Assembly: GCA_964016885.1 (NCBI GenBank)
Contig: OZ024742.1
Span: 30,814,001-30,878,000, forward strand
DNA: 64,000 bases
Reading direction: 5' to 3'
DNA from: Eledone cirrhosa
Lineage: Eukaryota
Within the stretch, counting starts at the first letter, position 1. Every line of letters starts with the position of its first letter. The notes beneath the pieces are model-generated. The model was given only the letters and a program-made list of their open reading frames with translations, was not told the DNA's origin and searched no databases. This document shows positions 181 to 39,600 of this stretch, piece by piece. Both the position numbers and the translations under genes were made by a program.

Positions 181-1103
181 TCATCATCATTTAACGTCCA
201 TTTTCCACGCTAGCATGGGTCTGGACGGGAATTGTCCCACTTGAGGCAAGATTGGTTGTCTTGCTCAGGACTGTCTGGCGGGTTTTCTACGGCTGGATGC
301 CCTTCCTAACACCAACCACGTTTACAGTGTGGACTCGGAGGTTTTTACCGTGTTACCTACACGGCCACATTACAGCGTGGACTGTGTGTTTTTTTGTTGT
401 GACACCTACACGACCTCATTTATTTAGGACTGAATGTTGTGGTACCAACATAGCTTTACATCGAAAGGGATGGTGTAGATGGCGGTGGGGGTAGGGTTAG
501 TGGAACGGGGGTGTATTTTGGTTAAGAGGTGCCTACTGACTGTAGGTTTCGCTTTGTACTTAGGCAAGGCGGGTCTTCTGTATTACTACGTAGCGCCAAA
601 GATCTCGGTCCAGTGACATTGTCTTGGAGAGGTGTAAGTGTGTGAGGTCGGATTTTATCAAGTCGTCCCAGATTTTTCTGGGTCTGCCTACTCCATAGCT
701 ACCGTCTATTTTGATCGCCCTGCACTTTTTTATACAGCTGTCATCTTTCATGCGCATCACGTGACCATACCAATGTAGTCTTCTCTCGAGTAAACAGCAT
801 CTGATCCCTCTTATTCCTAATTTCTCACTTAGTTCATTTATGCTTTGCCGTTCGCGTATATTACTATTAAACATCCAACGGAGCATGCAAGCTTCGTTCC
901 TCTCCAGTCTGCGTAGATCCTCTGCACACAAGGCCCATGTCTCACTGCCATGTAACATTGCTGTTCGTATGCAGGCATCATACAGCCTGTCTTTTATTTT
1001 TAGAGAGAAACCTTTAGCGGCCAATAGTGGTATAAGCTCTCTGAACTTTTTCCATCCCGTTCGGACTCTAGTTACAGTACTTTCAGAGCACCCTCCACCA
1101 CTG

Positions 1104-2798: not shown

Positions 2799-5421
2799 TC
2801 ATCATCATCATCATCATCAACGTTTAACGTCCGTGTTCCACGCTTGCATGGGTTTGGACGGGGGTAGTCCCACTTGAGGCAAGAGTGATTGTCTTGCTCG
2901 CATAGGACTGTCTGGCAGGTTTTCTACAGTTGGATGCCCTTCCTAACACCAACCACATTTACAGTGTGGGTCTGGGAGGTTTTTACTGTGTTGCCTACAC
3001 GGCCACATTACAGCGTAGACTGTGTGTTTTTTTGTCGTGACACCTACACGATCTCATTTGTTTCGGCCTGGATGGCGCGGCACCAACATAACTTTACATA
3101 GAACGGGGTGGTGTGGATGGGGTGGGGGTGGTGGTGGGACGGGGTGTATTTTGTTAGAGATGCCTACTGGCAAGGCGGGTCTTCTCTGTTACTGAGTACC
3201 GCCAAAGGTCTCGGTCCAGTGACATTGTCTTGGAGAGGTGTAAGTGTGTGAGGTCGGAGTTTATCAGCTCATCCCAGGTTTTTCTAGGTCTGCCTATTCC
3301 GTGGCTACCGTCTATCTTTATTGCCCTGCACTTTGTTATACAGCTATCGACTTTCATGCGCATCACGTGTCCATACCAACGCAGCCTTCTCTTGAGTAAA
3401 CAACATCTGATCCCTCTTATCTCTAATTTTTTCCTTAGTTCGTTTATGCTTTGCCGTTCACGTATATTACTGTTACACATCCAGCGGAGCATGCAAGCTT
3501 CGTTCCTCTCTAGTCTGCGTATATCCTCTGCACACAATGCCCAGGTCTCACTACCATGCAACATTGCTGTTCGTATGCAGGCATCGTACAACCTGCCTTT
3601 CATTTTTAGGGAGAACCCTTTAGCAGCTAATAGTGGTATAAGCTCTCTGAACTTTTTCCAACCAGTTCTGACTCTAGCTACAGTACTTTCAGAGCACCCT
3701 CCCCCACTGCTGATTTTATCGCCCAGGTAACGGAAGCTGTCCACTATTTCTATAGAACCCTCTGCGCAATTGAAAGAGCTAGTATTTTGTGGGCACTTGC
3801 TGCTACTTATTGCACCAGAACACCGGCCACATGTAAAATCTATGTTCTTAGTTAGCTTACCTGTGATCCCACTACATCTTTTATGCACCCATACTTTGCA
3901 TTTAGGACATAAAATGGAGTTTCTACCTACGCCTTTCCTACACACCGAGCACGACCATTTCCCAGAAGGGACCGCCGCCTTGTTTTCTTTCCTACAAACT
4001 AGAACTTTGGTCTTAGCCAGGTTAATTTTAAGGCCTTTTGACTCTAGGCCGTGCTTCCATGTTTTGGAATTTCTTCTCTAGCTCGGCCATTGATTCCGCT
4101 ATGAGTGTCAGGTCGTCTGCGTATAGGAGTTCCCATGGGCAGCCTGTCTTGAACTCCTCTGTTATAGCCTGAAGGGCAATAATAAATAGTAGGGGGCTGA
4201 GAACAGAGCCCTGATGGACGCCAACTTTTACGCTAAACTCTTCACTATATTCGTTGTTAATTCTAACCTTGCTGACTGTTTCTTTATACATGGCTTGTAT
4301 AGCCCTCACAAGCCATTCGTCAACGCCTAGTTTTCTAAGAGCCCACCAGATAATGGAGCGGGGGACTCTGTCGAAGGCTTTCTCCAGGTCGACAAAAGCT
4401 AAATAGAGGGGTTTACCTTTAGCTAGGTACTTCTCCTGTAGTTGTCGTACTATGAAAAGAGCGTCTGTGGTGCTTTTGCCTGACACAAACCCGAACTGCA
4501 TTTCATCTAGGTCAATTCTCTCTCTGATTAGTTGCGCTATTACTTTTTCCGTGACCTTCATGACCTGGTCGATTAATTTAATGCCTCTATAGTTACTCCT
4601 ATCTAGGGCGTCTCCTTTACCCTTATAACAGTTAACGATGATGCTGCTATGCCAGTCCTTCGGAACAACCCCATTCTGTACGACTTGGTTAACTATGCGG
4701 GTGACCATGGTGTGTCCCACCGTGCCAGATGCCTTCAGCATCTCAGCAACTATTTCCGAAGGCCCAGCCGCCTTACCCGTCTTCATATCCTTGATTGCCT
4801 TACTTATTATACTCCCCTCGACTAACACTGCTGGTCCCTCTATTGGGTCGATATGGGGGAGACTGTCTTTCTCCCATTTATTCTCCTCATTTAGTAGCCT
4901 TTCATAGTGACACTTCCAAGCTACCTTCTTATCAGTGTCGGTGATGGCAAGTATGCCATCATCGTTAAGTACACACTTCTCCCCGACAATATCACGGTTT
5001 TCCTTGACGCATTGCCTAGCAATCCTGAACACCTCACGTTTTTGGTCATCGCGTTGTAGAACATGCTTGAACTTTCTTTCCTCAGCTTCCCTTCTTGCTA
5101 AGTACACTTCTCTCCTAGCTTCCCTCCTGGCCACTTGATAGTCTACTCTACTCCCCCCATCCCGCCATACTTTCCAAGCCTGCTTTTTGGCCTTAATTGA
5201 CCCCTCCACCTTACTGTTCCACCACCATGTTACTCTCCTCCTGCCTACAGGCCTGCTCCAGCCACAGACTTCGTCTGTCGCCAACAGCAGGTTTGCTTTC
5301 AGAAATTCCCACTGTTCCTCTATATTGTACGACTGTAATTGCTCTTCCTTACTGTCGAAAGCATCAAGTAATATGCTTTGAAATTTATTTCTGGCTGTGG
5401 GGTCCTTTAGTTTCCATATTT

Positions 5422-5422
<1 letters not shown>
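2799..5422 (-). mobile_element. RTE-clade LINE, 5'-truncated, near-intact reverse transcriptase with one frameshift
   Basis: ORF 4028..5602(-) carries RT motifs KAAGP, YKGKGD..NYRGIKL, QFGF, FVDLEKAFDRV, GVHQGSVLSPLLF and LLYADD. After a 1-nt insertion at ~4061-4064 it continues into ORF 3154..3945(-) (FRYLG...WYGHVMRM...GRPRKTW). The 3' UTR ends in a (GAT)n tail and the 5' end is truncated in (TA)n. Confidence 0.96.
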
Positions 5423-5470
<48 letters not shown>

Positions 5471-5584
5471 TGTGTGTGTGTGTGTGTAGAAAGAGAGAAG
5501 GAGAGAGAGAGATAAAGCAATTAAGGACATGAAAGTGGGGTAGGCAGTTAGAAACATCTGGCGTGGTTGGTTATGAAGATAGTC

Positions 5585-7312
5585 AAATTCCCAATTAATC
5601 AAGTAATACAGAGTGGTGTCATATCTAAAAACTGGTGCAGCAGTGTCATTGTAAATTGCTTTAAAGGCAGGGGAGATGAATTAGAGAGAAGTAACTACAG
5701 GGGTATCCAGTTGATAGACCAGGCCATAAAGGTTGCTGAAAGGGTTCCAGCACAACTAATTAAGGACAGAATTAAGTTAAATGATGTGCAGTTGGGATTT
5801 ATGCAAGGTAGGGGTACTATTGATGCCCTCTTTCTGCTGAGACAATTGCAGGAGAGGTATGTAGCTAAGAATAAGTCGCTGTATCTGGCATTTGTAGATC
5901 TGGGGAGGGCCTTTGACAGGGTTCTATGATCTGTTATCTGGTGGCCACTTAGAACGCTAAGTGTAGATGAATGGCTTATGAAGGCCATTCAAGTTATGTA
6001 TAAAGGTGTAACTAGCAAAGTGAGAGTTGGCAATGAGTACAGTAATGAATTTGAAGTGCATGTGTGGGTCCACCATGGCTCAGTCCTCAGTCTAATTCTG
6101 TTTGTCATTGTTCTTCAGGCCATCCCTAAGGAGTTTAAAACAAGTAAAGCATTGGATGCTGATGTCCTAGTCCTCATAGCTGAATCTGTGGGAGAGTTAG
6201 AGAAAAAATTCAAAACATGGAAGTAAAACATAGAGTTGAAAGGCCCAATAGAAAACTTAGCAAAGATGAGTCTTAATAAGTAAGAAAGAAGACAGAAAGC
6301 TGATACCATCAGGGAAGAAGCCTTGTTCAATATGCCAGGAAGAGGTGTGCAGAAACTCCATAAGGTGCACACAATGTAAATAATGGACATGTAAGAGATG
6401 TAGTGAGATTACAGGTAGGATAATGGAGAAGATAGACATTGTATGTGGCTGGTGCACAGGAGAGGTAAACACTAAGAGCACATGTGAAATAGATTACCTC
6501 AGTTGCCAGGGAGGCTCTTTACAAATTGTTGATAGGTTTTGTTGTCTATGTGATTTAATCAGCAGTGGGGGAGAATGAACTGAAAGTGGAATAGCCAGGA
6601 TAAGAACAGACTGGAAAATAGTCTAGAGTTGATACTTCTGCTGATAATAAAGGGTTTCTCTCTCAGAGGGAAGGGAAGACTGTAAATGTCTGTGTGAAAA
6701 CTGCAATGCTACATGGCAGTGAAACATGGACCCTGACTGCAGAAGACGTGCGAAGGCTAGAAAGAAATGAAGTGAGTATACACTGATGGATGTATAATGC
6801 TAGAGTGCATGAATAACGTAGCATAAGAGAGCTAAGAAAAACACTTGACATAAATGGAATTGGATGTAGTGTGCAAGAGAGAAGACTGGTGGTATGGCCA
6901 TGTGATGTGTATGGAAGATAACAGTTGCATAATGAAATGAAAAGAAATTTCAGTTGCTGAAACTCGTGGAAGAGGTAGACTCAGGAAAATTTGGAATGAG
7001 GTAGTGAAGACTGAACTTCAGAAGTTGTACCTCACAACTGTGATGTGACCAGCATCCTCTAGCACTCCTAAGTAGCTATCCTTGCCATCACTGTACACCC
7101 TCATTTCATCCACACACCATCATTACACCCACCACACCATCTTGACACACTGTTGAGTTCCCCTCCCCTATGCTAATGACCACTCCATCCAACCCCTGCT
7201 CACACTATCACCTCTTTGTAGCTATTCTCACCATCACTACATCCCTCTTCTCTAAAATCCTGACACACCTGATAATGGGACAACTTTGGGCATTAAACAG
7301 TGATGATGAAGA

Positions 7313-7315
<3 letters not shown>
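5585..7315 (+). mobile_element. Older, degraded RTE-clade LINE copy (RT pseudogene), head-to-head with the previous copy
   Basis: ORF pieces 5567..5929 (NYRGIQLIDQ...FVDLGRAFDRV) and 5978..6226 (HHGSVLS), then CATGGCAGTGAAACATGG (HGSETW) and GGTAGACTCAGGAAAATTTGG, interrupted by many stops and frameshifts. A GAT-type tail lies near 7300. Confidence 0.88.
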
Positions 7316-7355
<40 letters not shown>

Positions 7356-7477
7356 GTAGGAGGTGAGTTTTATTGTAGTACAATAAAGCAATGCAGATAT
7401 CGGATAATAAGCACTCTACAGTTTGTAGGACTGGAGTATACATAATATATAAGAACAAAAGATGGTTAAAAGAGTTC

Positions 7478-7554
7478 CATGTATTTTATTATGCGCATTT
7501 CAAAAACAAATATCATCATGCAATAATATTTGTGTTTTCATCAGATAAAACATG
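7478..7554 (-). ncRNA. Type I hammerhead ribozyme (family A), predicted AUA cleavage between 7490 and 7489
   Basis: Minus strand: CATGTTTTAT-CTGATGA-[36-nt stem II]-GAAA-TGCGCA-TA^ATAAAATACATG. Exact mirror of 7674-7750. Confidence 0.85.
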
Positions 7555-7673
7555 AAGACATGATATGAAGGTTAAAAAACACTTGTGGATAGTGCAGTTT
7601 TAAATCAACATATGATATGTTGATTTAAAACTGCACTATCCACAAGTGTTTTTTAACCTTCATATCATGTCTT

Positions 7674-7750
7674 CATGTTTTATCTGATGAAAACACAAAT
7701 ATTATTGCATGATGATATTTGTTTTTGAAATGCGCATAATAAAATACATG
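7674..7750 (+). ncRNA. Type I hammerhead ribozyme (family A), predicted AUA cleavage after 7738
   Basis: Stem I is TTTTAT(7678-83)/ATAAAA(7739-44), extended by CATG/CATG. Core CTGATGA 7684-7690. Stem II 7691-7726 (~15 bp including G-U). GAAA 7727-7730. Minimal palindromic stem III TGCGCA. NUH triplet ATA 7736-7738. Confidence 0.87.
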
Positions 7751-7774
7751 GAACTCTTTTAACCATCTTTTGTT

Positions 7775-7813
<39 letters not shown>

Positions 7814-7815
<2 letters not shown>

Positions 7816-8003
7816 AAATGAAGTAATTCCGTCGGAAGAGTCCAGGAAAAAAGAGTGCTCTATGTAGGTAACAGAGCTTAATAGTTATGTAATGAACAAC
7901 ATAAGGCAATTATTCCATTTACCAGTGGTTTCTTAAAAGCAAAAAATTTTGCTTTCAATCCTCAGAATGAAAAAATCCTGGTCTGTTTATTGAATTTGGA
8001 TTT
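7814..8003 (-). mobile_element. (TA)n-embedded Penelope-like element 3' end (family B)
   Basis: Flanked by TA tracts and contains a hammerhead at 7913-7972. Its 3' terminal ~70 bp recur in the opposite orientation at 16133-16203, again inside (TA)n. Confidence 0.65.
7913..7972 (-). ncRNA. Type I hammerhead ribozyme (family B), predicted GUA cleavage between 7920 and 7919
   Basis: Minus strand: TTTCATT-CTGAGGA-TTGAAAGCAAAATTTTTTGCTTTTAA-GAAA-CCACTGG-TA^AATGGAA. Stem I has 7 pairs (one G-U), stem II is a long hairpin, and stem III is quasi-palindromic CCACTGG. Confidence 0.82.
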
Positions 8004-8024
8004 ATATATATATATACAAAATAC

Positions 8025-8700
8025 CATCAACATCAGTCATCACAGTTTAACATCTATTTTTCCATGCTAGCATTGCTTAGACGAGTTTCCTGTTGTGAGA
8101 CAAGTTAGGTCTTGCTCACACAGAACTGTTTCTGGTTTGGTTTCTATGGCTGGATGCCCTTCCTAATGCCAACCATGTTCACAGTGTGGACTGGGAACTT
8201 TTTTCATGACATTAAAACAACCGACTAACAGGTTCGACTGGTATTTTTTTGTGACATTTACATGACCATTTTACAGTGTTGACTAGGGTTTTTTGTTGTC
8301 ACCAACACGCCCACTTAACAGTGTAGACTGGTTGCTTTTTGTTGTATCACCAACACGACCACATAACAGTGTGGACTGGGTGCTTCTTGTGGTGTCACCA
8401 ACGCAACCACTTTACAGTGTGGCCTGGTAGCTTTCTGTCATGTCACCAACACAACCACATTTACAGGGTGGACTGGTTGCTTTTTGTCACTAACATGACC
8501 ACATTTACAATGTGGATTGGGTGCTTTTTGTGGTGTCACCAACACAACCACTTTACAGTGTGGATTGGATGCTTTTTCTCATGTCATTAACACAACCACT
8601 TTACAGGGTGGACTGGTTGCTTTTTGTTGTGTCACCAACACGTCCACTTTACCGTGTGGACTGGGTATTTTTGTACTGTCACCAGCACGCCCACTTTATA
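8025..8700. repeat. RTE-tail/SINE fragment expanded into a ~48-bp degenerate minisatellite
   Basis: About 9-10 copies of TGTCACCAACACGACCACTTTACAGTGTGGACTGGGTGCTTTT follow a CTGGATGCCCTTCCTAATGCCAACC repeat segment. Confidence 0.8.
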
Positions 8701-9080
8701 TATATAGCGACATTAAAGAAATAAAAATATATTTCTGTTACTAGAAGTATATAAAATTAGATAAGCAAGTTTTTGTTAATATATAAATTGTGTGACCATG
8801 TTTTGTCTATACACTTCCATTACAACTGATTAGCATTGCTATATTGTCAACAGATAAAACTTTTCATACATTCAAATACATATACATACATCAACACACA
8901 AACATATATATATATATATGGATATTTACACACGTTTATATGTGTGTATACATATATGAAGATGTGTGTATGTATTTATATATGTATTCATATATCTATA
9001 TATATATATCATACACGTGTATATATGTATATATGTATATATATATAATATATAAGATCAAAAGATGGTTAAAGGAGTTC

Positions 9081-9156
9081 CATGTATTTTATTATGCGCA
9101 TTTCAAAAACAAACATCATCATGCAATAATATTTGTGTTTTCATCAGATAAAACAG
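9081..9156 (-). ncRNA. Type I hammerhead ribozyme (family A), predicted cleavage between 9093 and 9092
   Basis: On +: TCATCAG 9141-9147, TTTC 9101-9104, TATGCGCA 9093-9100. Mirror of 9263-9338. Confidence 0.85.
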
Positions 9157-9262
9157 GAGAACATGATATGAAGGCTAAAAAACACTTGTGGATAGTGCAG
9201 TTTTAAATCAACATATATCTGCACTATCCACAAGTGTTTTTTAGCCTTCATATCATGTTCTC

Positions 9263-9338
9263 CTGTTTTATCTGATGAAAACACAAATATTATTGCATGA
9301 TGATGTTTGTTTTTGAAATGCGCATAATAAAATACATG
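9263..9338 (+). ncRNA. Type I hammerhead ribozyme (family A), predicted AUA cleavage after 9326
   Basis: TTTTAT, then CTGATGA(9272-78), stem II(9279-9314), GAAA(9315-18), TGCGCA-TA^ATAAAA. The one stem II difference from the 7.7-kb copy turns U-A into U-G. Confidence 0.86.
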
Positions 9339-9542
9339 GAACTCCTTTAACCATCTTTTGATCTTATATATTATGTATACTCCAGTCCTACAAACTGTAG
9401 AGTGCTTCTTATCCGATATCTGCATTGCTTTATTGTACTACAATAAAACTCACCTCCTACATATATATATATATATATATATATATGCGCACATTAGTAA
9501 AAAACGAGTGCGTGTTTGCCAAAATATAGATTCAATGCTTAT

Positions 9543-10520
9543 AATGGTTTCTTATATAGGCACAAGGCCAGTAATCTGGGGAGGGGAAAGTCGATTTAAT
9601 CGACCCTAGTGCGTGACTGGTACTCTATTTTATCGACCCCGTAAGGATGAAAGGTGAAGTTAACCTCGGTGGGATTTGAACTCAGATCATAAAGGGCCGT
9701 AACTCTATGCTGCAAAGCATGGTGTCCGACTCCCTACCGATACTACCAATCCACCGCCCTTTCAATGCTTATATCTTTATAACTGTTTCTACTTTGGGGA
9801 CAAGGCCAGCAATAACTCCAGTGCATTACTAGTACTTTATTTTATCGACCCCGTAAGGATGAAAGGCAAAGTTAACCTCGGCGGGATTTGAACTCAGAAT
9901 GGCAAGGGCCGTAACTCCATACGTCAAAGCATAGCGTCCGACCGTCTATCGGTACTGCCAATCCACTAATCTTTAAACGTCAACAGTCAACTTTATTTCA
10001 TAGATGGGTATATATCTATCTATGTAACTGAGAGTATGAGAGAGAGAAAAAGATACATAATTCTACATGGGTGTATATAAATAAACTCGTGCTTGCATAT
10101 CCAGCCATTTATACACACATCCCTATAGCTATCTATATTTCTCTTGCTCCCACTCTATCTACCCTCTTTCTCTCTCTTTTCATATATATATACACATATA
10201 TAATTGTTTCTACTTTGGGCACAAGGCCAGCAATAACCCCAGTGCATTACTGGTGCTTTATTTTATAGACCCCGTAAGGATGAAAGGCAAAGCTAACCTC
10301 GGCGGGATTTGAACTCAGCCTGTAAAGGGCCGTAACTCTGTGCTGCAAAGCATGGCGTCCGACCCTCTACCGATACTGCCAATAATAATTGGTTCTACTT
10401 AAGACACAAAGTCACCAATTTTAGGGGGGGGGGGGGCGTCGATTATATCGATCTCTGCATTACTAGTGCTTTATTTATCGACATTGTAAGGATTTGAACT
10501 CAGAACATAAAGGGCCATAG
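9543..10520 (-). mobile_element. Cluster of four tRNA-derived SINE copies (Meta-domain-like family)
   Basis: Repeated TTTTATCGACCCCGTAAGGATGAAAGGCAAAGTTAACCTCGGCGGGATTTGAACTCAG at ~9630, ~9841 and ~10261, with a degenerate copy at ~10474. This is the reverse complement of GAGTTCAAATCCCGCCGAGGTTAACTTTGCCTTTCATCCTTACGGGGTCGATAAAA. Confidence 0.85.
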
Positions 10521-10579
10521 TTTGACCAAAGCTATCTTCACGCATAAAAAGCTACTTCTTAATGCTTTGGATTTTTTAA

Positions 10580-10741
10580 TATATACATAAAATTATATAA
10601 TATATAATATAATATAATATATATATATATAAATATAATATATATATATAAATATAATATATATATATATATAATATATAAATATAATATATATATATGT
10701 ATATATAATATATAAATATAATATATATATATATAAATATA

Positions 10742-10774
<33 letters not shown>

Positions 10775-10832
10775 AATATAATATATATATATATAAATAT
10801 AATATATATATATACACATAGAGAGAGAGAGT
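10580..10832. repeat. Compound AT microsatellite
   Basis: (TA)n interrupted by AAATATAA units, followed by (GA)n. Confidence 0.95.
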
Positions 10833-12203
10833 AAGCATGTAGTGAAACCAAACAAGGTGTATAATATATAGACAATGTAAAAAGAAAAGAAAAGGGGGAA
10901 GCTATAGCTTTACGAAGAGTAAATAAACTCTATTTATTATTATTTTTTCCTTCAAAATTTAACAAGAAAGAAGGAAAAAATCCCCATAAATTTACTGCAA
11001 TTTTCATAAAGATTTCCAATTTAGGAAAAAACTAGGTCAAGGCAAAAGTTGGAACATAAAGCAATAATATGAAATAGCTACAAAGTACCTTAAATCACCA
11101 ACATGTGGTATACGCTATACTATAATAAAACGAAATAAATATATATAATTATATGTGTCTGTGTTTATATAAATGTATCGTCGACGAGGAAAACATTTTT
11201 TTTTTAAATGTCGTTTTTTTCAATATGTGTCTTTTTGTTAAGATTCAAGAATTTTTTTTTTTCTTTCCGTATTTTTCAAAAATTTTCCTCCTGATAAACC
11301 GTTGTCGATTATTTTGTGGTTGTATGGAGAAGGCAAAGAAAACGAAACAATAATTTTAATTTGTTGCTTAAAATTATTGGGAATGTTTTGCGTGGAAATA
11401 TTTTCATTGAATTATTTAATTTATGAAGAAAACAGCATTATTGTCATCTATTTATTTGCTTCTTGTTACAATAAAAAGGTGTTGAAAACGGATTGTGTGT
11501 GATTATATGTATACATGGTGTGTGCCTGTATGTATATATATATGTATGTATGTATGTACGTACGGTGCGTGCCTGCGTATATATATATATATTTACATAG
11601 TGTGTGTATATGGTATATGTAAATGGTACGTGCCTGTGTGTGTACATTATATATGTATGTGTATGTATGTTATGGTGTCTAAGTGTGCGTATGTATGTGT
11701 AAGTGTTGTGCGTTGGTGTATGCATATGTGATGTGAAAATATGTGAAAAGTGGCATTAATGGTAAAAATAGATGTTTTTTGTGTGTGTTATTTGTTTAAA
11801 TACAGGTTTTATTGTATCCAATGAAACATTAGAACGTTTGTAGATGATATAAATGTCTACACACGTATAGGTCAACCAGATGTAGGTTGAATTTGTTTCA
11901 TGTTATTGTAGCTATTTTTGTTTGTGTATGTATGTATGTGTAAGTGTGTGTATGTGTTTATCTGTGTACGAATTTGTAACCTATGCATGAGTGAAAGAGG
12001 AGGGTAGGTGTAAGAGAGGAGAGAGAGCCCTAGTAGCAGGAGTAATGCTGGCATAACACACATTTGCACATCAATCAACATATTCTATTCACTTCGAAAC
12101 AACTAGCAAGCAAAACGGCGCCTTGTTGAAACTATAAGAAATCTAGTTTTAACACTTTTAACTTTTAGTCCCCAAACCCCGTTACATTTACTATTTACTA
12201 AAT

Positions 12204-12269
12204 ATGGTGCGGTCTTCAAGGGTGCAGAAAAGTCAACCGAAAAAAACTAAAGCCGATTCTCCAGCGCCG
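12204..12269 (+). CDS. Exon 1 (start codon) of a 229-aa basic/acidic disordered protein: MVRSSRVQKSQPKKTKADSPAP
   Basis: ATG at 12204 in AAT-ATG-G context, 22 open codons, strong phase-0 donor CCG|GTAAGA matching the phase-0 acceptor at 48111. Composition (K/R/S/P) fits the downstream exons. Locally CpG-containing unique sequence. Confidence 0.7.
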
Positions 12270-14519
12270 GTAAGATAATTTTATTTAAACAAGAAATTAG
12301 TGGAAAATAAGGCAAAGTGCGAGCAAGCTTTCACCATTCCCGCCGCCACCGTTTAGTTGTGTGTATATGTCTCTCTTTCTTTCTCCCACTCTATCTGTGT
12401 GCGCGCCTGTTGTTTATTTCGAATTGTATATTTGAAAATAGACATCAATGAATATTATAGAGAAAGATACTTATTTCTTAGATCGAATATCTATATATCA
12501 GATTCAATTATTGATATTTATATAAAATGAGAGAGAAATATATAGAATGAGACAGAGGGAAAATATAGATATAGTAAAAGAGAAAGAGAGAGTAACTTCC
12601 AGCAGCACGCTACATTATGACGGTGTAAAAATGAAAAAAATATATCTATACCTCGATCATGTTTTACATTTTATCTCAATAATACTTCGATTTTCCACTA
12701 ATTCTTTTTACATAATATTCTTATTCGGTGTTTCTTCTTCAATTCTGTGTAATTAGTTTTAATTTTGCGCCATTCTATTTTGTCTGCCGTTGTGTTACAT
12801 GCACGGCTATCTCGCTGTCCAGTTTCCCCATTATTTAAAAACATTTCATGTTTTGCGAGAATATCTTGACGCTCCTCTACAAATGTTGCGATTTATATTT
12901 ATTTGTTGCATGTCTTGGATTTTCAAACCAAGTTTGAATTTCATTTAGTGCCATTAAAATTAAATGTTTTTTAAAATATAATTCAAAATTATAAACCTAA
13001 CATTTTCCTACAAATGGTACATATGTTATACATACACACACGTCGTTAAACCAATTAAGACAGTGTGTAACCAGTTATAAAAGAAACATATGCAGGTTTT
13101 CGATAAAAGACAAAAAAATCTAATCAAGTATTTTAATATGAATTAATTCAGTTTTCTTATATATTTTTATGCTAACAGATTGTGTTGTAAATTTTTCGTT
13201 TCATTATTTTTCAATTACAAAATCTGTCTCGTTAAGAAACAACAATGGTGACTTTGTTGAAAACCACATAAAACAAGTTCCTTTTATTAACCATTATAAT
13301 TAGAAGAATTAATATATTTTTTATTCATAAATAACTTTTTTCCTTCTTTTGTTTATATGCCACAATTGAAATATGTATTTATTGAAACAAAAACATGAGA
13401 GTGGTGTTATAGTATGGAATGGGGGACATTTGTTTGTGGAAGTGGTTGATTTATAAATGTAGTAGTAGTATTTTCTGGGTTTTTTTAATATTTTATATCT
13501 TTCAGGCTTTCTACTAAACATTTATTTTTGTTTTATAATTAATCTATATCAACCGTTGTTCTTTTAATTCAGTAGCTTGTATTTAGATCTGAAATGGCCA
13601 TTGTAGAGAAATTATAGAAATAAAATGTGTTAGAACTGTATATTGGGAATGGAGGATAAAGTCAATAAAGAAAGGGGAAGGTTGATTCTTTCATTGCCGT
13701 TTCAACCGGACTAAGTCAGTTCCAAGCGGCTGAATTTGCTCAAGACTAGTTAAAGCGAGAGAAAGGGAGAGTCGTTTAAGGAAGAGGGAGAGATTTTATA
13801 TTTTTATGACTTGTTCATTCTTGGTATTTTACTGTCTCTCACAGCCGCACCCTTCGTTCTCCCTGACGCTTCCATTCGTCTGGCTAAAGAAAAAAAATGG
13901 ACATTTTCCTAAATACTTCATATATATTTGACCACAAAGATTTATATATAATATATATCCATGTATTAATTAAAAAGCATGCTTAAGTTTATTTTTATAG
14001 ACTATATACAATTAAACGCAATTTTTTTTAATACTTATTAAGGGGGGAGGCACAGACCTAAACTATACCCATGTTTTTAGATAATTTGTAAATAAATTTA
14101 TTTGTGCAAGTTTTATAAACATACATTTATCTATCCTCGTGTAAATTAAATAAATATATATATTATTTAAATTTATTTTATAAATATTCATATACATTAG
14201 TGTAGAGTAATACAAATTTTTATTTTAAGTTATTAGATTCAGTTTGTAAATTAAAACAAATAATATCTATTATTTCGGAGCCTATCATGTTTTATATATT
14301 TTAACAATATCTCTAATATTGTATTTTCTGTAATATAACCCTCTCTCCCTTTCTCTAGATACTCTGTCTTCTCTTTCATTCTCCCCACATTTTCTTTTTT
14401 TCTTTCTTCATCGCCGTCTCTCTTTCTCTTCAATGCTGTTCCCGCTCTTTACCATAACATGTAGTTTGCTAAAAGTGCAAACTTACGCAAACGCATTCAG
14501 CACAAAGAGCGTAGGGACA

Positions 14520-16132: not shown

Positions 16133-16203
16133 TCATAACTATTAAGCTCTGTTACCTACATAGAGCACTCTTTTTTCCTGGACCTTTCCGACGGAATTAC
16201 TTC
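16133..16203 (+). mobile_element. 3'-terminal fragment of the family B (TA)n-embedded element, without the ribozyme
   Basis: CATAACTATTAAGCTCTGTTACCTACATAGAGCACTCTTTTTTCCTGGA..TTCCGACGGAATTACTTC is the reverse complement of ~7818-7889. Confidence 0.8.
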
Positions 16204-17039
16204 TATATATATATATAGTTCCTTTTTCACGATGTTGCAATTAAAATTAATAACATGATGATGGAATCCTATTTTGATTGAATATTCTTTCCTCATCTTG
16301 AAGCCATTGGCCTGTAAATTTGAGTAACTTGAAGAAAACGTGGCTTTTATTATGCTTTTAAAATATGTTGATGGCCTATAAATTCCATTGCATTGTGCCA
16401 AAAGTAGAAACAATTATTTGAAAAATAACGGTTTCTTTCAATAATGTAATATATTTAGAATCAGCAACAGCAAGATGTCTTAAAACCAGAAACAGATTGT
16501 GTTTACTGATTTATTTTCTTTCCTTTTCTATCTATGAACATAAAAAGTAAATTTCTTGTTTTGTCCATAAATATATCTCATTTGTATCCGCAATTACATT
16601 TTCATCCCTAATAAATTGAAAGAACAACGTTTAAAATTTTCCGAAAGCAAAACAATACATTCCTAATGTTTATATCATTAAATAAACATCACATTATTTT
16701 GAAAATGAATACAGTTATTACAAAGTATTTCTATTGTTTATCGATCTAATTGATACATAGATATTTATAAAGCATTAAATTGAAGTTCCATATTGTTTTT
16801 ATATTATTGAAGAATTTTTTGAAATATATTTTTTCGAAGACGTTGTTGTTTTTAAATAAAAGGCATTTACTCTTCTACTTGTTCCAGCCAAATAGCTGAG
16901 GCACATATATATTTAAAATATGTATCTAAGTACTCAAGTTAAATTTCTATAATAATCCGTCTTCCAAATCTCCGACATCTTTAAATACAACCGTGTTAAA
17001 ACGACGGGAAAGAAACCTCCCTCATTGCAGAGAGGTGTT

Positions 17040-28096: not shown

Positions 28097-29058
28097 ACTA
28101 TCTTGTCGCTGCTGGTTCCACTACGTTCCTCTTTGGTAAGCTCCAATTTAGCTATCTTTTTATATTTCTATTTTTACGGATAAATTGTTTTACAAATGGT
28201 TATTTATTTACCTAGTACTTATACACACAGACAAATATATATAAAATATTATTTATTTGTGTGTAAAAATCTCTAAATATATTCGAGGTGATCGGTGTTA
28301 GTGGACGTCTTAAGTTGGAGGGGGTGAAGGAGATCGTTTCTATCATTCCTATGGGTTCTCTCTTCTGTCCGATATTATATAGAGGTGAGTGATGTTATCG
28401 TTATCATTGCCTTCTATTTTCCTCTTAAATTAACAATCGATCCACTTTATAATCACCAAACACCCGCTATTTATGATCCGATCCATGATCGATTTAATCA
28501 AGAATTAGTCGTTTTTATTTTACCCCCATTTTAAAAAATATTTTTCCATTATTTTTTATTCATTTTTCTCCGTTTCTGTTCCTTTTTCGCACCATTTCTA
28601 CAATATGTAATACACATTATATCAGTTGAGCTTTTTTCAACTGATCAGTTGATACCTGTGCATATTTGACGATATATATATATAAAAAAACACAGACAAT
28701 CAACTCTCGAATATAAACGAATGTGAGTATATATATATATATATACATACATACGGGTCTTGCCTGTGTGTGGATATATATTGATTTTTAATTGTTTACA
28801 ACGATATTCTCAGATTTCTGCATCTAGATTTAATATAAACACAAAATGATATCAATAGTGATCAATTTAAACAAAGCCTTGCGTGTGTGTATATATATCC
28901 GCCAGTTTAGAAAAAAATATTTATGCACACTTCACCAAACAAACACGTGGATGTATGGTGAAAATATTTCATGTAAGCACATACTATATATGTATACATA
29001 CGTACTATATATATATATATATGCACACACACTCTCTGTATATATATATATATAAAAA

Positions 29059-29123
29059 ATCAAAAGATGGTTAAAAGAGTTCCATGTATTTTATTATGCG
29101 CATTTCAAAAACAAATATCATCA
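29059..29123 (-). mobile_element. Fragment of family A element in (TA)n carrying only the 3' half of the hammerhead
   Basis: CAAAAGATGGTTAAAAGAGTTCCATGTATTTTATTATGCGCATTTCAAAAACAAATATCATCAT matches 7456-7519. It lacks the CTGATGA half. Confidence 0.8.
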
Positions 29124-32100
29124 TATATATACACATGCTATATATAAAATGTACGTTTTACTGAAATATGTTAAATGGAGTTTGCCTCTTCAGCATAATA
29201 AATCTGGGCAAATATTTAAAGAGAGAGAGAGAGAGTGATTGTACGGTGTTGGCGGCAGCATGTTTCTTTCATTCTTGCTACTGTGATCTCTATGTAGGAC
29301 ATAACCTATAATATAGGAGAAACAACACAGTAGTTAATTCTCTTGTCTAATTATAACATGTACAGGTGCGTTGTTTCCAATCGCTTATTCCATTGTAGTG
29401 GTTTTTATACTTGTGAGGAGACTTTCTACCATTATTTTTTGTACATGTATTATATGACATAAAAGCATACGTTACTTTAGACGAGGAAAAAATAGAATTT
29501 AATTATCGAATTTAATCCAAACAGGAGGAGGTTTTTTTTTTGTAATTTATTGGGGAAATGTTCCATTGTCTTTGTTTTTACACCTGTATTTGCTCCGGAG
29601 ATGTACTGAATATTGGAACAGGTGTAATGTTCGTTTGTAATTATTTTATAATTGGAGGAGCTTTTGTTTCGTTAAATAGAATGCCATATATATATTTTTT
29701 AAATTTGTACTTTATACTGTTTTTATATAAATACGTGAATTTTATAATTATACTGTACTGTCTATAAGTAATGTTGACTATACGAAATAGAAATAACCGT
29801 AAAAACATGTCCCGATTATATACTGCACATATGTATGTGCGTATTTATATATACAGATTTTCTTAGATATAGTTTATGAATTGTAAAATAGTATTTTAAA
29901 AAGTCATTTAATCCTGCTAGTTACATTATAATATTAGAGTTTCTAATTTTCATATATATATTTATAATAAAGTTTCTCTTTCGATTGTGTTATATATATA
30001 TATATTAAAATCTAGTCCATCCAGATGGATCGTTCTGGTAACGAAAAGAAGCGCAATTGTTTGAAAAAGAGAATACCCAGTTAAGAAAGGTTGGGCGCCA
30101 AAAACTGACAGCATTCATTTCTTGATATAGATAGTGACTGCCACTGATATAAAGGGAGGGAGAGAGAGAGAGAAGTCAGCATGTGTGATGTTGTTCATGT
30201 CTTTGTCAAAGCCATTGTTATTGTGTTGTTGTAGCTGTGATGGTGGCGTAGTTGTAGTAATGGTGGTGGTGGTGGAGTGGTTGTAGTAATTGTAAACCTG
30301 CCGGTTACAATTACTTGTATTTAGTTTCGTCCTTCCGTGTCGGTTTAATGAAAGTGTAAACCAATCGACTTTACCACTTCCTGACAAAAGTGTGTTTTTC
30401 TAATCATTCCAAAAAATTTTTTATAGGCATTAGTTTTTTTTTTTTTAATTGTGTCTTTGGCAACGTCCATTTTTACCTCAAATCTACATTTCCGAGATTA
30501 AGTTAAGGTAAAATACTTTAATCTCAAGGTCATTGTTGTATGTCTACAACAGCTAAAGATGAAGATGAGGTCACGAATTAGAAATTAGGTCAGTTGTCTT
30601 CAGAAGTAGGCTGATGGTTGAAAACTGTGTCATGGTGTCTGTGATAAGTCACTCTAAGTCCAGAGTCACTATCAACGTATTTCTACTATTTTCTAATAAA
30701 TTTAATCATAAAACTATTGTTACACTTTCTTGATTAAGGAAATGATTTATTTTATATAATTAATTTAATAAAATAATGATTGTACTGCCTCTTCAGCGTG
30801 GACAATAAACGACAAAAGTTTATATAACAGATTCGTGTCTCATTGTTTAAACCAGAAATAGCTTTAACTGCAGATTTAAAGTGAATTGAATGAAAATTAT
30901 TTTTTATAACCAATTAAAATATCTACTTGGTGGAGGGAGGCAAAGTTTGAGGGGTTTACCGCTGTTTTCAGAAAAGGTACACAATATCCCCGAGTGTCGT
31001 CGTAAGAGGCAATTAAAAGGGTTGGTGTCAGTAAGGGCATCTGGTTGTAAAACACCCTGCTCAAACCCATTCCAGTATGGAGAAGTGGACGTTAGAACGA
31101 TAATGATGATGAATATAGAATGTGCCACTTCACTCTCCAGCAATTGTTACATACAGTGTCAACTGAACCAATTTAGGTCAGTAAAAGGTAGACAGAAATA
31201 ATTGGTATTTAGCGAGTTAAGTCAAGATAGTGTTCCGTATAGAATACAGTTGATGTCCCAACAACAGAATGGATCACAACATACATAACTTAGTAGTTTG
31301 AGTGAAATCTGGAGACTAGAAAATGTCAGCTCTAATCCATTGATGTTCCTTTAGAAACAATTTTATTCAACATTAGAATCATCATATCATCCTTATTTAA
31401 CGTGTTTCTTCCTGCTAGTAAGGGTGTGGCAATGCTACATATAACCCAGTAAGTACTCCATCTCCTTAATGACAGTTGTTAATGAACAACACCATTGTAT
31501 ATTAGTTTTTTTTTAATGCCTGTAAATAATCAACAATTTGGTAACATAATTTTCTCATTAATTAAGCTGCTGTTTGAAATGTTAATTAAAAGTTCTTATG
31601 CAAAATAATTATGGTGGAAGGTTTTTAGATAAACAAAGTTTTGTATTTTAGAACCTGGGTCAGTTTAGTTTCAAAGGGGTTATGTATGATAATAGTACTC
31701 ATTTTGCCTCTGGTAGAAAACTGCCAGACACAACACCTGTGTTCAGGTTTGTTTATAGATCAATATTCTATCACTATATATTATACTTATTCTTATATAT
31801 TTATATTTGTCAGGTAGTCTAACAGATTAGTGTTCTTGTCCGTGTTTTATAAAGATATTTATTGCTAACATTGTGATGTGGTTAGACTTGTAACAGGCAT
31901 GTCTGGCTAGTAATGTGACACATGTATGGCTAGTGCTGTAACTTAGATATATATTCCTGTTTAACAAACACATTGATGTGTTTTGTTCCATGAGCTGAGT
32001 TCAAACCCTTGTGTGTGTAGATCACTTAGAGAGAGATAAATAGAGGAATGATGAGATGATGTCTGAGATTCTATGTACAAAGAGTCCGAGCCCTTGGGTG

Positions 32101-34259: not shown

Positions 34260-37200
34260 CCTCTGTCTAGCTGTGGTGTGGTAATGGCCGCTACATCTCT
34301 ACCTTCCCTGTCTAGTTGTGACCTACCTCTAGCCAAGCACATATATTCTACCATCCCTCTGTCTAGCTGTGGTATAGTAATAGTCACTACCCTTCTAACA
34401 ACCCTGTCTACTGTGGTATGGTAATAGTCACTACCTTTCTAACAACCCTGTCTACTGTGGTATAGTAATAGTCACTACCTTTCTAACAACCCTGTCTACT
34501 GTGGTATAGTAATAGTCACTACCCTTCTAACAACCCTGTCTACTGTGGTATAGTAATAGTCACTACCCTTCTAACAACCCTGTCTAACTGTGGTATAGTA
34601 ATAGTCACTACCCTTCTACCATCCCTCTGTCTAGCTGTGGTATAGTAATAGCCACTACCCTTCTAACAACCCTGTCTAGCTGTGGTATAGTAATAGTCAC
34701 TACCCTTCTAACAACCCTGTCTAGCTGTGGTATAGTAATAGTCACTACCCTTCTAACAACCCTGTCTACTGTGGTATAGTAATAGTCACTACCCTTCTAA
34801 CAACCCTGTCTAGCTGTGGTATAGTAATAGCCACTACCCTTCTAACAACCCTGTCTAGCTGTGGTATAGTAATAGCCACTACCCTTCTAACAACCCTGTC
34901 TAGCTGTGGTATAGTAATAGTCACTACCCTTCTAACAACCCTGTCTACTGTGGTATAGTAATAGTCACTACCCTTCTAACAACCCTGTCTAGCTGTGGTA
35001 TAGTAATAGTCACTACCTTTCTAACAACCCTGTCTAGCTGTGGTATAGTAATAGTCACTACCCTTCTAACAACCCTGTCTACTGTGGTATAGTAATAGTC
35101 ACTACCCTTCTAACAACCCTGTCTACTGTGGTATAGTAATAGTCACTACCTTTCTAACAACCCTGCCTAGCTGTGGTATAGTAATAGTCACTACCCTTCT
35201 AACAACCCTGTCTACTGTGGTATAGTAATAGTCACTACCCTTCTAACAACCCTGTCTACTGTGGTATAGTAATAGTCACTACCCTTCTAACAACCCTGTC
35301 TAGCTGTGGTATAGTAATAGCCACTACCCTTCTAACAACCCTGTCTAGCTGTGGTATAGTAATAGCCACTACCCTTCTAACAACCCTGTCTAGCTGTGGT
35401 ATAGTAATAGCCACTACCCTTCTAACAACCCTGTCTAGCTGTGGTATAGTAATAGTCACTACCCTTCTAACAACCCTATCTAGCTGTGGTATAGTAATAG
35501 TCACTACCTTTCTAACAACCCTGCCTAGCTGTGGTATAGTAATAGTCACTACCCTTCTAACAACCCTGTCTAGCTGTGGTATAGTAATAGTCACTACCCT
35601 TCTAACAACCCTATCTAGCTGTGGTATAGTAATAGTCACTACCTTTCTAACAACCCTGTCTAGCTGTGGTATAGTAATAGTCACTACCCTTCTAACAACC
35701 CTGTCTAGCTGTGGTATAGTAATAGTCACTACCCTTCTAACAACCCTATCTAGCTGTGGTATAGTAATAGTCACTACCCTTCTAACAACCCTGCCTAACT
35801 GTGGTATAGTAATAGCCACTACCCTTCTAACAACCCTGTCTAGCTGTGGTATAGTAATAGCCACTACCCTTCTAACAACCCTGTCTAGCTGTGGTATAGT
35901 AATAGTCACTACCTTTCTAACAACCCTGTCTACTGTGGTATAGTAATAGTCACTACCCTTCTAACAACCCTGTCTACTGTGGTATAGTAATAGTCACTAC
36001 CCTTCTAACAACCCTGTCTACTGTGGTATAGTAATAGTCACTACCTTTCTAACAACCCTGTCTACTGTGGTATAGTAATAGTCACTACCCTTCTAACAAC
36101 CCTATCTAGCTGTGGTATAGTAATAGTCACTACCTTTCTAACAACCCTGTCTACTGTGGTATAGTAATAGTCACTACCCTTCTAACAACCCTGTCTACTG
36201 TGGTATAGTAATAGTCACTACCCTTCTAACAACCCTGTCTACTGTGGTATAGTAATAGTCACTACCCTTCTAACAACCCTGTCTAGCTGTGGTATAGTAA
36301 TAGTCACTACCTTTCTAACAACCCTGTCTACTGTGGTATAGTAATAGTCACTACCCTTCTAACAACCCTGTCTAGCTGTGGTATAGTAATAGTCACTACC
36401 CTTCTAACAACCCTGTCTAGCTGTGGTATAGTAATAGTCACTACCTTTCTAACAACCCTGTCTACTGTGGTATAGTAATAGTCACTACCCTTCTAACAAC
36501 CCTATCTAGCTGTGGTATAGTAATAGTCACTACCTTTCTAACAACCCTGTCTACTGTGGTATAGTAATAGTCACTACCCTTCTAACAACCCTGTCTAGCT
36601 GTGGTATAGTAATAGTCACTACCCTTCTAACAACCCTGTCTACTGTGGTATAGTAATAGTCACTACCCTTCTAACAACCCTGCCTAACTGTGGTATAGTA
36701 ATAGCCACTACCCTTCTAACAACCCTGTCTAGCTGTGGTATAGTAATAGCCACTACCCTTCTAACAACCCTGTCTAGCTGTGGTATAGTAATAGTCACTA
36801 CCTTTCTAACAACCCTGTCTACTGTGGTATAGTAATAGTCACTACCCTTCTAACAACCCTGTCTACTGTGGTATAGTAATAGTCACTACCCTTCTAACAA
36901 CCCTGTCTACTGTGGTATAGTAATAGTCACTACCTTTCTAACAACCCTGTCTACTGTGGTATAGTAATAGTCACTACCCTTCTAACAACCCTATCTAGCT
37001 GTGGTATAGTAATAGTCACTACCTTTCTAACAACCCTGTCTACTGTGGTATAGTAATAGTCACTACCCTTCTAACAACCCTGTCTACTGTGGTATAGTAA
37101 TAGTCACTACCCTTCTAACAACCCTGTCTACTGTGGTATAGTAATAGTCACTACCCTTCTAACAACCCTGTCTAGCTGTGGTATAGTAATAGTCACTACC

Positions 37201-39600
37201 TTTCTAACAACCCTGTCTACTGTGGTATAGTAATAGTCACTACCCTTCTAACAACCCTGTCTAGCTGTGGTATAGTAATAGTCACTACCCTTCTAACAAC
37301 CCTGTCTAGCTGTGGTATAGTAATAGTCACTACCTTTCTAACAACCCTGTCTACTGTGGTATAGTAATAGTCACTACCCTTCTAACAACCCTATCTAGCT
37401 GTGGTATAGTAATAGTCACTACCTTTCTAACAACCCTGTCTACTGTGGTATAGTAATAGTCACTACCCTTCTAACAACCCTGTCTAGCTGTGGTATAGTA
37501 ATAGTCACTACCCTTCTAACAACCCTGTCTACTGTGGTATAGTAATAGTCACTACCCTTCTAACAACCCTGTCTAGCTGTGGTATAGTAATAGTCACTAC
37601 CCTTCTAACAACCCTGTCTACTGTGGTATAGTAATAGTCACTACCCTTCTAACAACCCTGTCTACTGTGGTATAGTAATAGTCACTACCCTTCTAACAAC
37701 CCTGTCTACTGTGGTATAGTAATAGCCACTACCCTTCTAACAACCCTGTCTACTGTGGTATAGTAATAGTCACTACCCTTCTAACAACCCTATCTAGCTG
37801 TGGTATAGTAATAGTCACTACCTTTCTAACAACCCTGTCTACTGTGGTATAGTAATAGTCACTACCCTTCTAACAACCCTGTCTACTGTGGTATAGTAAT
37901 AGTCACTACCCTTCTAACAACCCTGTCTAGCTGTGGTATAGTAATAGTCACTACCCTTCTAACAACCCTGCCTAGCTGTGGTATAGTAATAGTCACTACC
38001 CTTCTAACAACCCTATCTAGCTGTGGTATAGTAATAGTCACTACCTTTCTAACAACCCTGTCTACTGTGGTATAGTAATAGTCACTACCCTTCTAACAAC
38101 CCTGTCTAGCTGTGGTATAGTAATAGTCACTACCCTTCTAACAACCCTGTCTAGCTGTGGTATAGTAATAGTCACTACCTTTCTAACAACCCTGCCTAGC
38201 TGTGGTATAGTAATAGTCACTACCCTTCTAACAACCCTGTCTAGCTGTGGTATAGTAATAGTCACTACCCTTCTAACAACCCTGTCTACTGTGGTATAGT
38301 AATAGTCACTACCCTTCTAACAACCCTGTCTAGCTGTGGTATAGTAATAGCCACTACCCTTCTAACAACCCTGTCTAGCTGTGGTATAGTAATAGCCACT
38401 ACCCTTCTAACAACCCTGTCTAGCTGTGGTATAGTAATAGCCACTACCCTTCTAACAACCCTGTCTAGCTGTGGTATAGTAATAGTCACTACCCTTCTAA
38501 CAACCCTGTCTACTGTGGTATGGTAATAGCCACTACCCTTCTACCATCCCTCTGTCTAGCTGTGGTATAGTAATAGCCACTACCCTTCTAACAACCCTGC
38601 CTAGCTGTGGTATAGTAATAGTCACTACCCTTCTACCATCCCTCTGTCTAGCTGTGGTATAGTAATAGTCACTACCTTTCTAACAACCCTGTCTACTGTG
38701 GTATAGTAATAGTCACTACCCTTCTAACAACCCTGTCTACTGTGGTATAGTAATAGTCACTACCCTTCTAACAACCCTGTCTACTGTGGTATAGTAATAG
38801 TCACTACCTTTCTAACAACCCTGTCTACTGTGGTATAGTAATAGTCACTACCCTTCTAACAACCCTGTCTACTGTGGTATAGTAATAGTCACTACCCTTC
38901 TAACAACCCTGTCTACTGTGGTATAGTAATAGTCACTACCTTTCTAACAACCCTGCCTAGCTGTGGTATAGTAATAGTCACTACCCTTCTAACAACCCTG
39001 TCTACTGTGGTATAGTAATAGTCACTACCCTTCTAACAACCCTGTCTACTGTGGTATAGTAATAGTCACTACCCTTCTAACAACCCTCTGTCTGTCTAGC
39101 TGTGGTATAGTAATAGTCACTACCCTTCTAACAACCCTGTCTACTGTGGTATAGTAATAGTCACTACCCTTCTAACAACCCTGTCTACTGTGGTATAGTA
39201 ATAGTCACTACCTTTCTAACAACCCTCTGTCTGTCTAGCTGTGGTATAGTAATAGTCACTACCCTTCTAACAACCCTGTCTACTGTGGTATAGTAATAGT
39301 CACTACCCTTCTAACAACCCTATCTAGCTGTGGTATAGTAATAGCCACTACCCTTCTAACAACCCTGTCTACTGTGGTATAGTAATAGCCACTACCCTTC
39401 TAACAACCCTGTCTACTGTGGTATAGTAATAGTCACTACCCTTCTAACAACCCTGTCTACTGTGGTATAGTAATAGCCACTACCCTTCTAACAACCCTGT
39501 CTACTGTGGTATAGTAATAGTCACTACCCTTCTAACAACCCTGTCTAGCTGTGGTATGGTAATAGTCACTACCCTTCTAACAACCCTCTGTCTAGCTGTG
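34260..39600. repeat. 5.3-kb tandem array of a 44/45-bp unit (roughly 118 copies) in intron 1
   Basis: Unit GTGGTATAGTAATAGTCACTACCCTTCTAACAACCCTGTCTA(G)CT. Very homogeneous, with more degenerate copies at the left edge. Confidence 0.98.

Follow-up and report, generated by a model that had tools for sequence, protein, structure and literature searches.

A 64-kb window of Eledone cirrhosa DNA (the whole stretch analysed) was scanned on both strands with a type I hammerhead descriptor. Exactly five motifs were found, all within 7482-9334, and the same descriptor gave 0 motifs in 100 dinucleotide shuffles of the window. The scan thus bore out the five type I hammerheads on both strands reported in a preliminary description of this DNA, whose predicted cleavage sites 7738/7739 and 7920/7919 agree with the C3 and H17 assignments of the descriptor (Table 1). 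Each motif has the core elements CUGANGA, GAAA and NUH flanked by three stems (I-III), with stem I open, which places it in type I. The family A motif carries CUGAUGA, an 8-bp stem I, a long stem II, a palindromic stem III and AUA as NUH; the family B motif carries CUGAGGA, a 7-bp stem I, an 11-bp stem II, a near-palindromic stem III and GUA. The 61 matches that an Rfam scan of 5000-13000 gave at E<=10 included no hammerhead family, presumably because a long stem II with a minimal stem III falls outside the Rfam hammerhead models. The best Rfam matches were miRNA models placed on the palindromes described below.

Table 1. Hammerhead motifs, insertion arms and target tracts at the locus (window positions).
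Feature	Position	Strand	Detail
Hammerhead 1, family A	7482..7552	-	C3 7544, H17 7490, predicted cleavage after 7490
Hammerhead 2, family A	7676..7746	+	C3 7684, H17 7738, predicted cleavage after 7738
Hammerhead 3, family B	7913..7972	-	C3 7965, H17 7920, predicted cleavage after 7920
Hammerhead 4, family A	9085..9155	-	C3 9147, H17 9093, predicted cleavage after 9093
Hammerhead 5, family A	9264..9334	+	C3 9272, H17 9326, predicted cleavage after 9326
(TA)n target tract, left of E1	7315..7353		repeat analysis
E1 long arm: family A pLTR from +1 with ~90-nt tail	7354..7613	-	95.8% to L061 5' pLTR
Single extra G at E1 palindrome centre, 5' of short-arm +1	7614	+	sequence
E1 short arm: family A pLTR from +1, tail-less	7615..7783	+	0/167 nt differ from long arm
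(TA)n tract common to E1 and family B insertion	7777..7811		repeat analysis
Family B single tailed pLTR arm from ~+26, without inverted partner	7812..8003	-	97.4% to L065 pLTR
E2 short arm: family A pLTR from +1 (9216), tail-less, ends in (TA)n	9040..9216	-	repeat analysis
E2 long arm: family A pLTR from +17 with tail	9219..9462	+	98.8% to L061
(TA)n target tract, right of E2	9461..9486		repeat analysis

The five motifs stand, but they lie in only three insertions, namely E1, a family B arm and E2. Repeat analysis showed that every insertion end adjoins (TA)n, in line with the (TA)n setting described earlier. E1 (7354-7783) and E2 (9040-9462) are asymmetric head-to-head family A palindromes in mutually opposite orientation. 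Because the arms are identical over their overlap inside each palindrome while 8/242 nt differ between E1 and E2, these are separate, young insertions. The extra G at 7614 is likely a copy of the RNA cap. The palindromes begin where transcription is inferred to start and so probably derive from the first 170-260 nt of the RNA. Hence the former reading of the elements as Penelope-like element (PLE) 3' ends was half right: they are pLTR ends, but the palindromes start at the presumed transcription start. A putative gene start, with an ATG at 12205, a short open stretch after it and then a GT donor, fits the quoted distance of 2.7-4.9 kb; the gene itself is a candidate.

The 64-kb window holds no family A ORF. 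Two further arms lack a full hammerhead, a truncated family B tailed arm from +140 at 16134-16211 (+) and a truncated family A tail-less arm from ~+95 at 29039-29124 (-). The surroundings are rich in other repeats: a 48-nt tandem array between the B arm and E2 (8260-8698), a ~185-nt SINE-like repeat present four times to the right of E2 (9540-10520) and a 5.2-kb satellite (34359-39587) made of 117 copies of a 45-nt unit with 95% matches. Non-LTR reverse transcriptase fragments, which we take to be RTE-like, lie at 560-958 (-), 3154-3603 (-), 4028-5557 (-) and 5573-5929 (+), one of them 509 aa long.

A genome search for full copies encoding RT and GIY-YIG was successful at other loci (L061 and L065), and these full-length copies confirmed the PLE origin suggested for the motifs, as pLTRs with minimal, palindromic-stem-III hammerheads. 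The full family A element at L061 is composed of a tailed pLTR, an 831-codon stop-to-stop open frame, a 3'UTR and a tail-less pLTR (unit ~3.9 kb), with an inverted 5'-truncated tailed copy upstream. L065 carries the family B equivalent with one frameshift. The tails are ~90 nt (A) and 68 nt (B) long. The family A frame has the YRDD motif of a telomerase-like RT, and its AlphaFold model (mean pLDDT 86.9) gave TERT as the top fold match. Pfam returned no domain for the family A protein and nothing meaningful for that of family B, and sequence and profile searches of solved structures with the element proteins gave no match. At the C-terminus the two proteins bear the GIY-YIG endonuclease motifs IYE..YFG and VYE..YVG; GIY-YIG is present in 26-50% of members among Atlas neighbours, and one aligned relative matches PF01541 weakly (E 0.012). 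One protein relative is named from Argonauta hians. The description of A and B as two unrelated families held at the DNA level, where they do not align, but not for the proteins, whose RT parts are 40% identical.

Both proteins show the marks given for the Hydra clade in section 11 of PMC8557442, that is DKT, the CxCX5C linker, and CxxC and CxH around E and N, with no CCHH; at the RWK position B has RWK and A has RWT. As in that clade, there is a single ORF with RT and C-terminal GIY-YIG, the targets are (TA)n (191/198 sampled arms adjoin a TA or CA repeat), the pLTR contains the hammerhead, and an inverted 5'-truncated partner is found, with pLTRs direct or inverted and the tail at one end, as in EN+ PLEs. 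Inverted partners, tails commonly confined to one end, the Hydra clade and (TA)n targets are described in the literature (PMC8557442, PMC3846280). The elements at our locus are therefore almost certainly pLTRs of two Hydra-clade Penelope-like retrotransposons. They differ from the published clade in several respects. Tails of 30-40 bp are given in PMC8557442, against ~90 nt in A and 68 nt in B, and here one family has >23,000 pLTR arms and a ~3.9 kb unit with an Asn-rich insert. This insert, rich in Asn/Ser/Thr and predicted to be disordered, precedes the endonuclease linker of the family A protein (L061:5693-8185 (-), model residues ~584-655). It is missing in most relatives and resembles the Asn-rich inserts described for rotifer PLEs (PMC3846280). 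An octopus Hydra element, Hydra-1_Obim from Octopus bimaculoides, is in print in the supplement of PMC8557442; the supplement entry notes no pLTR for it, and it is set beside A and B by description alone.

Both families are abundant. Exact matches in the genome numbered 23,281 for the family A 3' 24-mer, 8,473 for the family A ribozyme 29-mer, 867 for the family A RT 24-mer, and 3,791 and 3,258 for two family B motifs. In one public run, the depth over the pLTR was ~300x that over the ORF start. A sample of arms was drawn from the first 100 listed exact A 3'-motif matches and the first 70 of B on contig 1, together with their partners; these 111 A and 87 B arms represent one end of one contig, picked by exact 3' motif. 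Two family B palindromes counted in it (L110 and L112) lie 1.2 Mb apart with identical flanking sequence, which points to a segmental duplication or a carrier element.

The 3' ends of the sampled arms fall at two positions per family, the tail-less ones at +167 (A) and +148 (B) and the tailed ones at +257 (A) and +216 (B). Among adjacent head-to-head pairs within 7 kb, 34/39 in A and 26/27 in B (60/66 in total) consist of one tailed and one tail-less arm, and 45/48 short palindromes have one arm of each kind (P 3e-12 versus 0.5). Two A exceptions proved to be internal 5' pLTRs running on into the ORF; three true exceptions to the one-tail rule (L128, L162 and L164) are left. No partner was seen in the sequence examined for 33/111 A and 33/87 B arms, including the B arm of the window, and same-strand neighbours numbered 5 among 198 arms. 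The two arms also share their alleles: subfamily-diagnostic mismatches were 9/344 (2.6%) in A and 16/148 (10.8%) in B within short palindromes, versus 38.5% (A) and 41.8% (B) between insertions. Centres, junctions and spans differ from copy to copy.

The 5' ends pile up at one site, which follows the same short motif in both families. Of 73 family A arms not running into the 3'UTR, 43 start at -15..+6; family B ends gather at +11..+25 around the self-complementary TTTTAAAA, with 3 at +1..+3. Where arms start at +1, the position -1, at which the genome has C, was G in 16/28 non-C cases versus 12/54 controls (P 0.003), or 16/44 versus 12/69 when C cases are counted (P 0.027); 4 of the 16 extra Gs could be templated by the partner arm. 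In LINE-1 work, an extra 5' G has reportedly been read as a copy of the cap. At L065, a pyrimidine tract ending in CAG and resembling a splice acceptor lies 8 nt before the presumed family B start site. An intron end near the ribozyme is described for Penelope of D. virilis (PMC4209133).

The arms L095 and L206, one in each family, start exactly at the ribozyme cut, and cleaved RNA was thus considered as the copied template. This idea was rejected: of 194 A and 96 B truncated arms, 30 per family were examined in sequence, and no 5'-end peak was observed at the cleavage site (4/30 in A and 3/30 in B over 12 positions). By eye, ~8/100 and ~9/96 of the arms listed start there, and two A palindromes and one B palindrome are centred on the cleavage site; cleaved RNA may be used as a template, rarely.

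Taken together, the one-tail rule, the common alleles, the 5' pile-up and the extra G indicate that two primings likely took place on one uncleaved, capped RNA. In the mechanism we propose, the element RNA would start at pLTR +1 and the element protein would nick both strands of a (TA)n tract. One nick would prime at the tail-less site (+167 in A, +148 in B) and the other at the tail end (+257 in A, +216 in B). Tail-less priming would probably come first, with the second cDNA displacing the first, since a cDNA begun earlier at the tail end would cover the other site; to our knowledge, PLE ORFs lack RNase H. Both cDNAs would extend toward the RNA 5' end through the uncut ribozyme, their 3' ends would join via a short self-complementary stretch or a few extra bases, after which each would be copied on the other to give an asymmetric head-to-head palindrome. 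Priming on the 5' pLTR would yield short palindromes as at our locus, and priming on the 3' pLTR long inverted copies. A related PLE behaves comparably in vitro, where both strands are nicked and extended and RT starts at two tail-flanking sites on uncleaved RNA (PMC11167929). It is thus probable that the five hammerheads are the pLTR ends of three (TA)n insertions, two of them palindromes made by double priming on uncleaved, likely capped RNA. For palindromes of these families at large, we incline on balance to double priming on one uncut capped RNA. The broadest version, that every insertion event primes twice, tail-less first, on one capped uncleaved RNA, with thousands of short palindromes in this genome as the fossil record of the Penelope insertion step, is evenly poised between belief and doubt.

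The strongest competitor is fold-back, in which one cDNA or antisense RNA primes on itself, copies itself and stops at the TA-like tail-less site. It has already been proposed for rotifer PLEs (PMC3846280), and it accounts for the common alleles and the single tail per insertion as well as for the self-symmetric added bases at some palindrome centres (L143 and L174) and the TAT microhomology between tail-less ends and target. The lengths of the arms are harder for it to explain. In the 60 one-of-each pairs, the arm extending further 5' is the tail-less one in 16 and the tailed one in 10; the arms are equal in 23, and 11 were left unassigned. A longer tail-less arm could not have been copied from the tailed arm, yet in 16/26 unequal pairs, E2 included, the tail-less arm has 5' sequence missing from the tailed one, and the full-length arm at L061 is the tail-less one. 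Fold-back needs an added deletion for each such case and is in our opinion rather unlikely. Counting against double priming, later deletions at the palindrome centres could randomise the apparent longer arm, and gene conversion could equalise the arms.

A non-autonomous palindromic master, MITE- or retrozyme-like and copied whole, seemed to be suggested by a centre junction common to most of the 30 best E2 matches. That sharing reflects query bias, however: the E2-type junction occurs 34 times in the genome versus 23,281 family A arms, centres and spans vary among copies, and no tandem unit array is present at the locus. The diversity of junctions largely rules out such a master, which we regard as very improbable.

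The remaining question is whether the ribozymes matter where they now lie. In isolation, the motifs are predicted to fold stems I and II, with P(stem I) of 0.76-0.88 (A) and 0.56-0.69 (B). For read-through RNA over E1 or E2 from either strand, the prediction is a ~165-bp hairpin (-282 to -294 kcal/mol at 37 °C) that leaves no ribozyme fold, P(stem I) being 0.000. The antisense arm is made first on either strand and the hairpin is perfect; the ribozymes would be blocked in such transcripts. Even within a single arm, stem I is predicted to be mostly unpaired in both A and B (P(stem I) <=0.025); all of these are equilibrium predictions. Dimers through stem III are the predicted MFE structure at 37 °C and not at 20 °C. 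As for published experiments, monomers of metazoan minimal PLE hammerheads are reported as uncleaved and dimers as weakly cleaving (PMC4209133), and cleavage by an Anolis PLE hammerhead required protein (PMC11167929). The earlier expectation that a transcript crossing the region carries self-cleaving sites finds no support in these predictions, which trap four of the five motifs inside a perfect hairpin. The hammerheads of E1, the B arm and E2 are very probably passengers in dead copies, predicted to be blocked in read-through RNA.

Conservation was assessed over the sampled arms. Core variants in family A were rare, 6/1086 versus 213/7858 at other non-diagnostic positions (P 9e-7), while family B showed 21/813 versus 116/3522 elsewhere (P 0.37, not significant). 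Variants in the stems kept pairing more often than they broke it, 160 to 27 in A and 47 to 33 in B, by one-sided G-U changes, and the common stem variants were all pair-keeping. We infer that the ribozyme is selected in source elements and that copies decay neutrally.

The clustering itself was called a hotspot. Three insertions in 2.2 kb do form a local excess: at 20 insertions/Mb, a given window would hold them with P ~1.4e-5. Chance alone, however, should produce ~19 windows of this kind across the 3.0-Gb genome, and a comparable cluster, four family A arms in 2.7 kb, exists in the first 27 Mb of contig 1. The cluster is therefore uncommon yet needs no special cause. In 39 arbitrary 10-kb stretches, the descriptor gave 11 hammerhead matches of several families, one probably by chance, a density of ~26-28 per Mb or tens of thousands genome-wide; other hammerhead families were not enriched near A/B arms (3 in 151 kb versus 10 in 390 kb). 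Reuse of one TA tract by E1 and the B insertion helped to build the cluster, and a local insertion preference may have contributed. No link between the cluster and the putative gene starting at 12205 was shown. The notion of a selected hotspot, with ribozymes cutting transcripts upstream of that gene, could appeal to the five of five intact cores, to a density of insertions above the mean and to a B motif without an inverted partner. Intact cores are the norm anywhere in the sample, as they occur in 86/91 A and 54/67 B arms spanning the motif; the identical arms inside E1 and E2 mean that these are young; the predicted hairpins leave P(stem I)=0, with the B stem I predicted unpaired in context; minimal metazoan hammerheads lack monomer cleavage (PMC4209133); and chance provides for like clusters. 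Such selection is scarcely credible. Finally, assembly artefacts of fold-back long reads, a known source of perfect inverted repeats, are a negligible possibility, since the arm ends fall at two fixed positions of the element, each pair has a single tail, and the same end positions running into TA repeats recur in contigs of four public runs.

The double-priming reading can be set against known systems. In LINE-1 twin priming, a single RNA is copied into two cDNAs, one primed by each target strand, and an inversion results. There the cDNAs copy different parts of the RNA, whereas here both would copy the same pLTR and so give a palindrome. The Anolis Poseidon element PAc (PMC11167929) shares AT-rich targets, nicking and extension of both strands, tail-bounding RT starts and an uncleaved template with our model; it belongs to another clade (Poseidon), and its ORF starts inside the ribozyme, here downstream of the tail. 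One-of-each pairing of start sites per insertion is not among the results in the available text of that paper. Metazoan PLE hammerheads (PMC4209133) resemble ours in the core, the long stem II, the palindromic stem III and the mostly solo dispersed copies; stem I (7-8 bp) and stem II (11-15 bp) are longer here, and the 2,000-9,000 copies of other animals are exceeded. Opposite-strand hammerhead pairs 100-700 bp apart have been noted in Schistosoma (PMC4209133). Non-LTR retrozymes (10.64898/2026.07.22.740005) are likewise short non-coding PLE-derived units with type I hammerheads. They form tandem head-to-tail arrays, whereas head-to-head pairs or solos occur here, and no tandem head-to-tail hammerhead unit was found at the locus. 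As the A and B arms are head-to-head or solo, no intramolecular ribozyme dimer can form.

A repeat paper on Octopus vulgaris counts Penelope-like elements, with no mention of ribozymes or Hydra in its accessible portion (PMC13282606), and the origin of tandem and inverted PLE structures and the role of the hammerhead are called open in PMC8557442. Among the papers searched, mostly open ones, none was found to state for PLEs that each insertion combines one arm of each kind, or that an extra G derives from the cap; older Penelope work may do so.

The locus itself is unremarkable: it holds three young transposon ends, and a putative gene lies downstream. The elements stand out by their longer tails and very high copy number, and the family statistics bear on the insertion mechanism. 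With an intact open frame, 867 RT-motif copies and >23,000 ends, family A makes the insertion model statistically testable, and double priming makes precise predictions: there should be two start sites, each used once per event, and a start at +1. If it is true, the position of the transcription start can be read from the palindromes, and the RNA being copied is not cut by the conserved hammerhead. Thousands of perfect 150-170-bp hairpin templates would then exist, which could be substrates for RNA editing or Dicer where transcribed.

Two minor observations were made elsewhere in the genome. The random stretches contained hammerheads of at least four additional families, which share the core but differ in their stems (L217, L225, L229, L232, L239 and L243), one of which occurs as a head-to-head pair. 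An intronless gene of the Spot 14 family (PF07084, E 4e-27) lies at L063:883-1680 (-), ~2 kb from a family B insertion.
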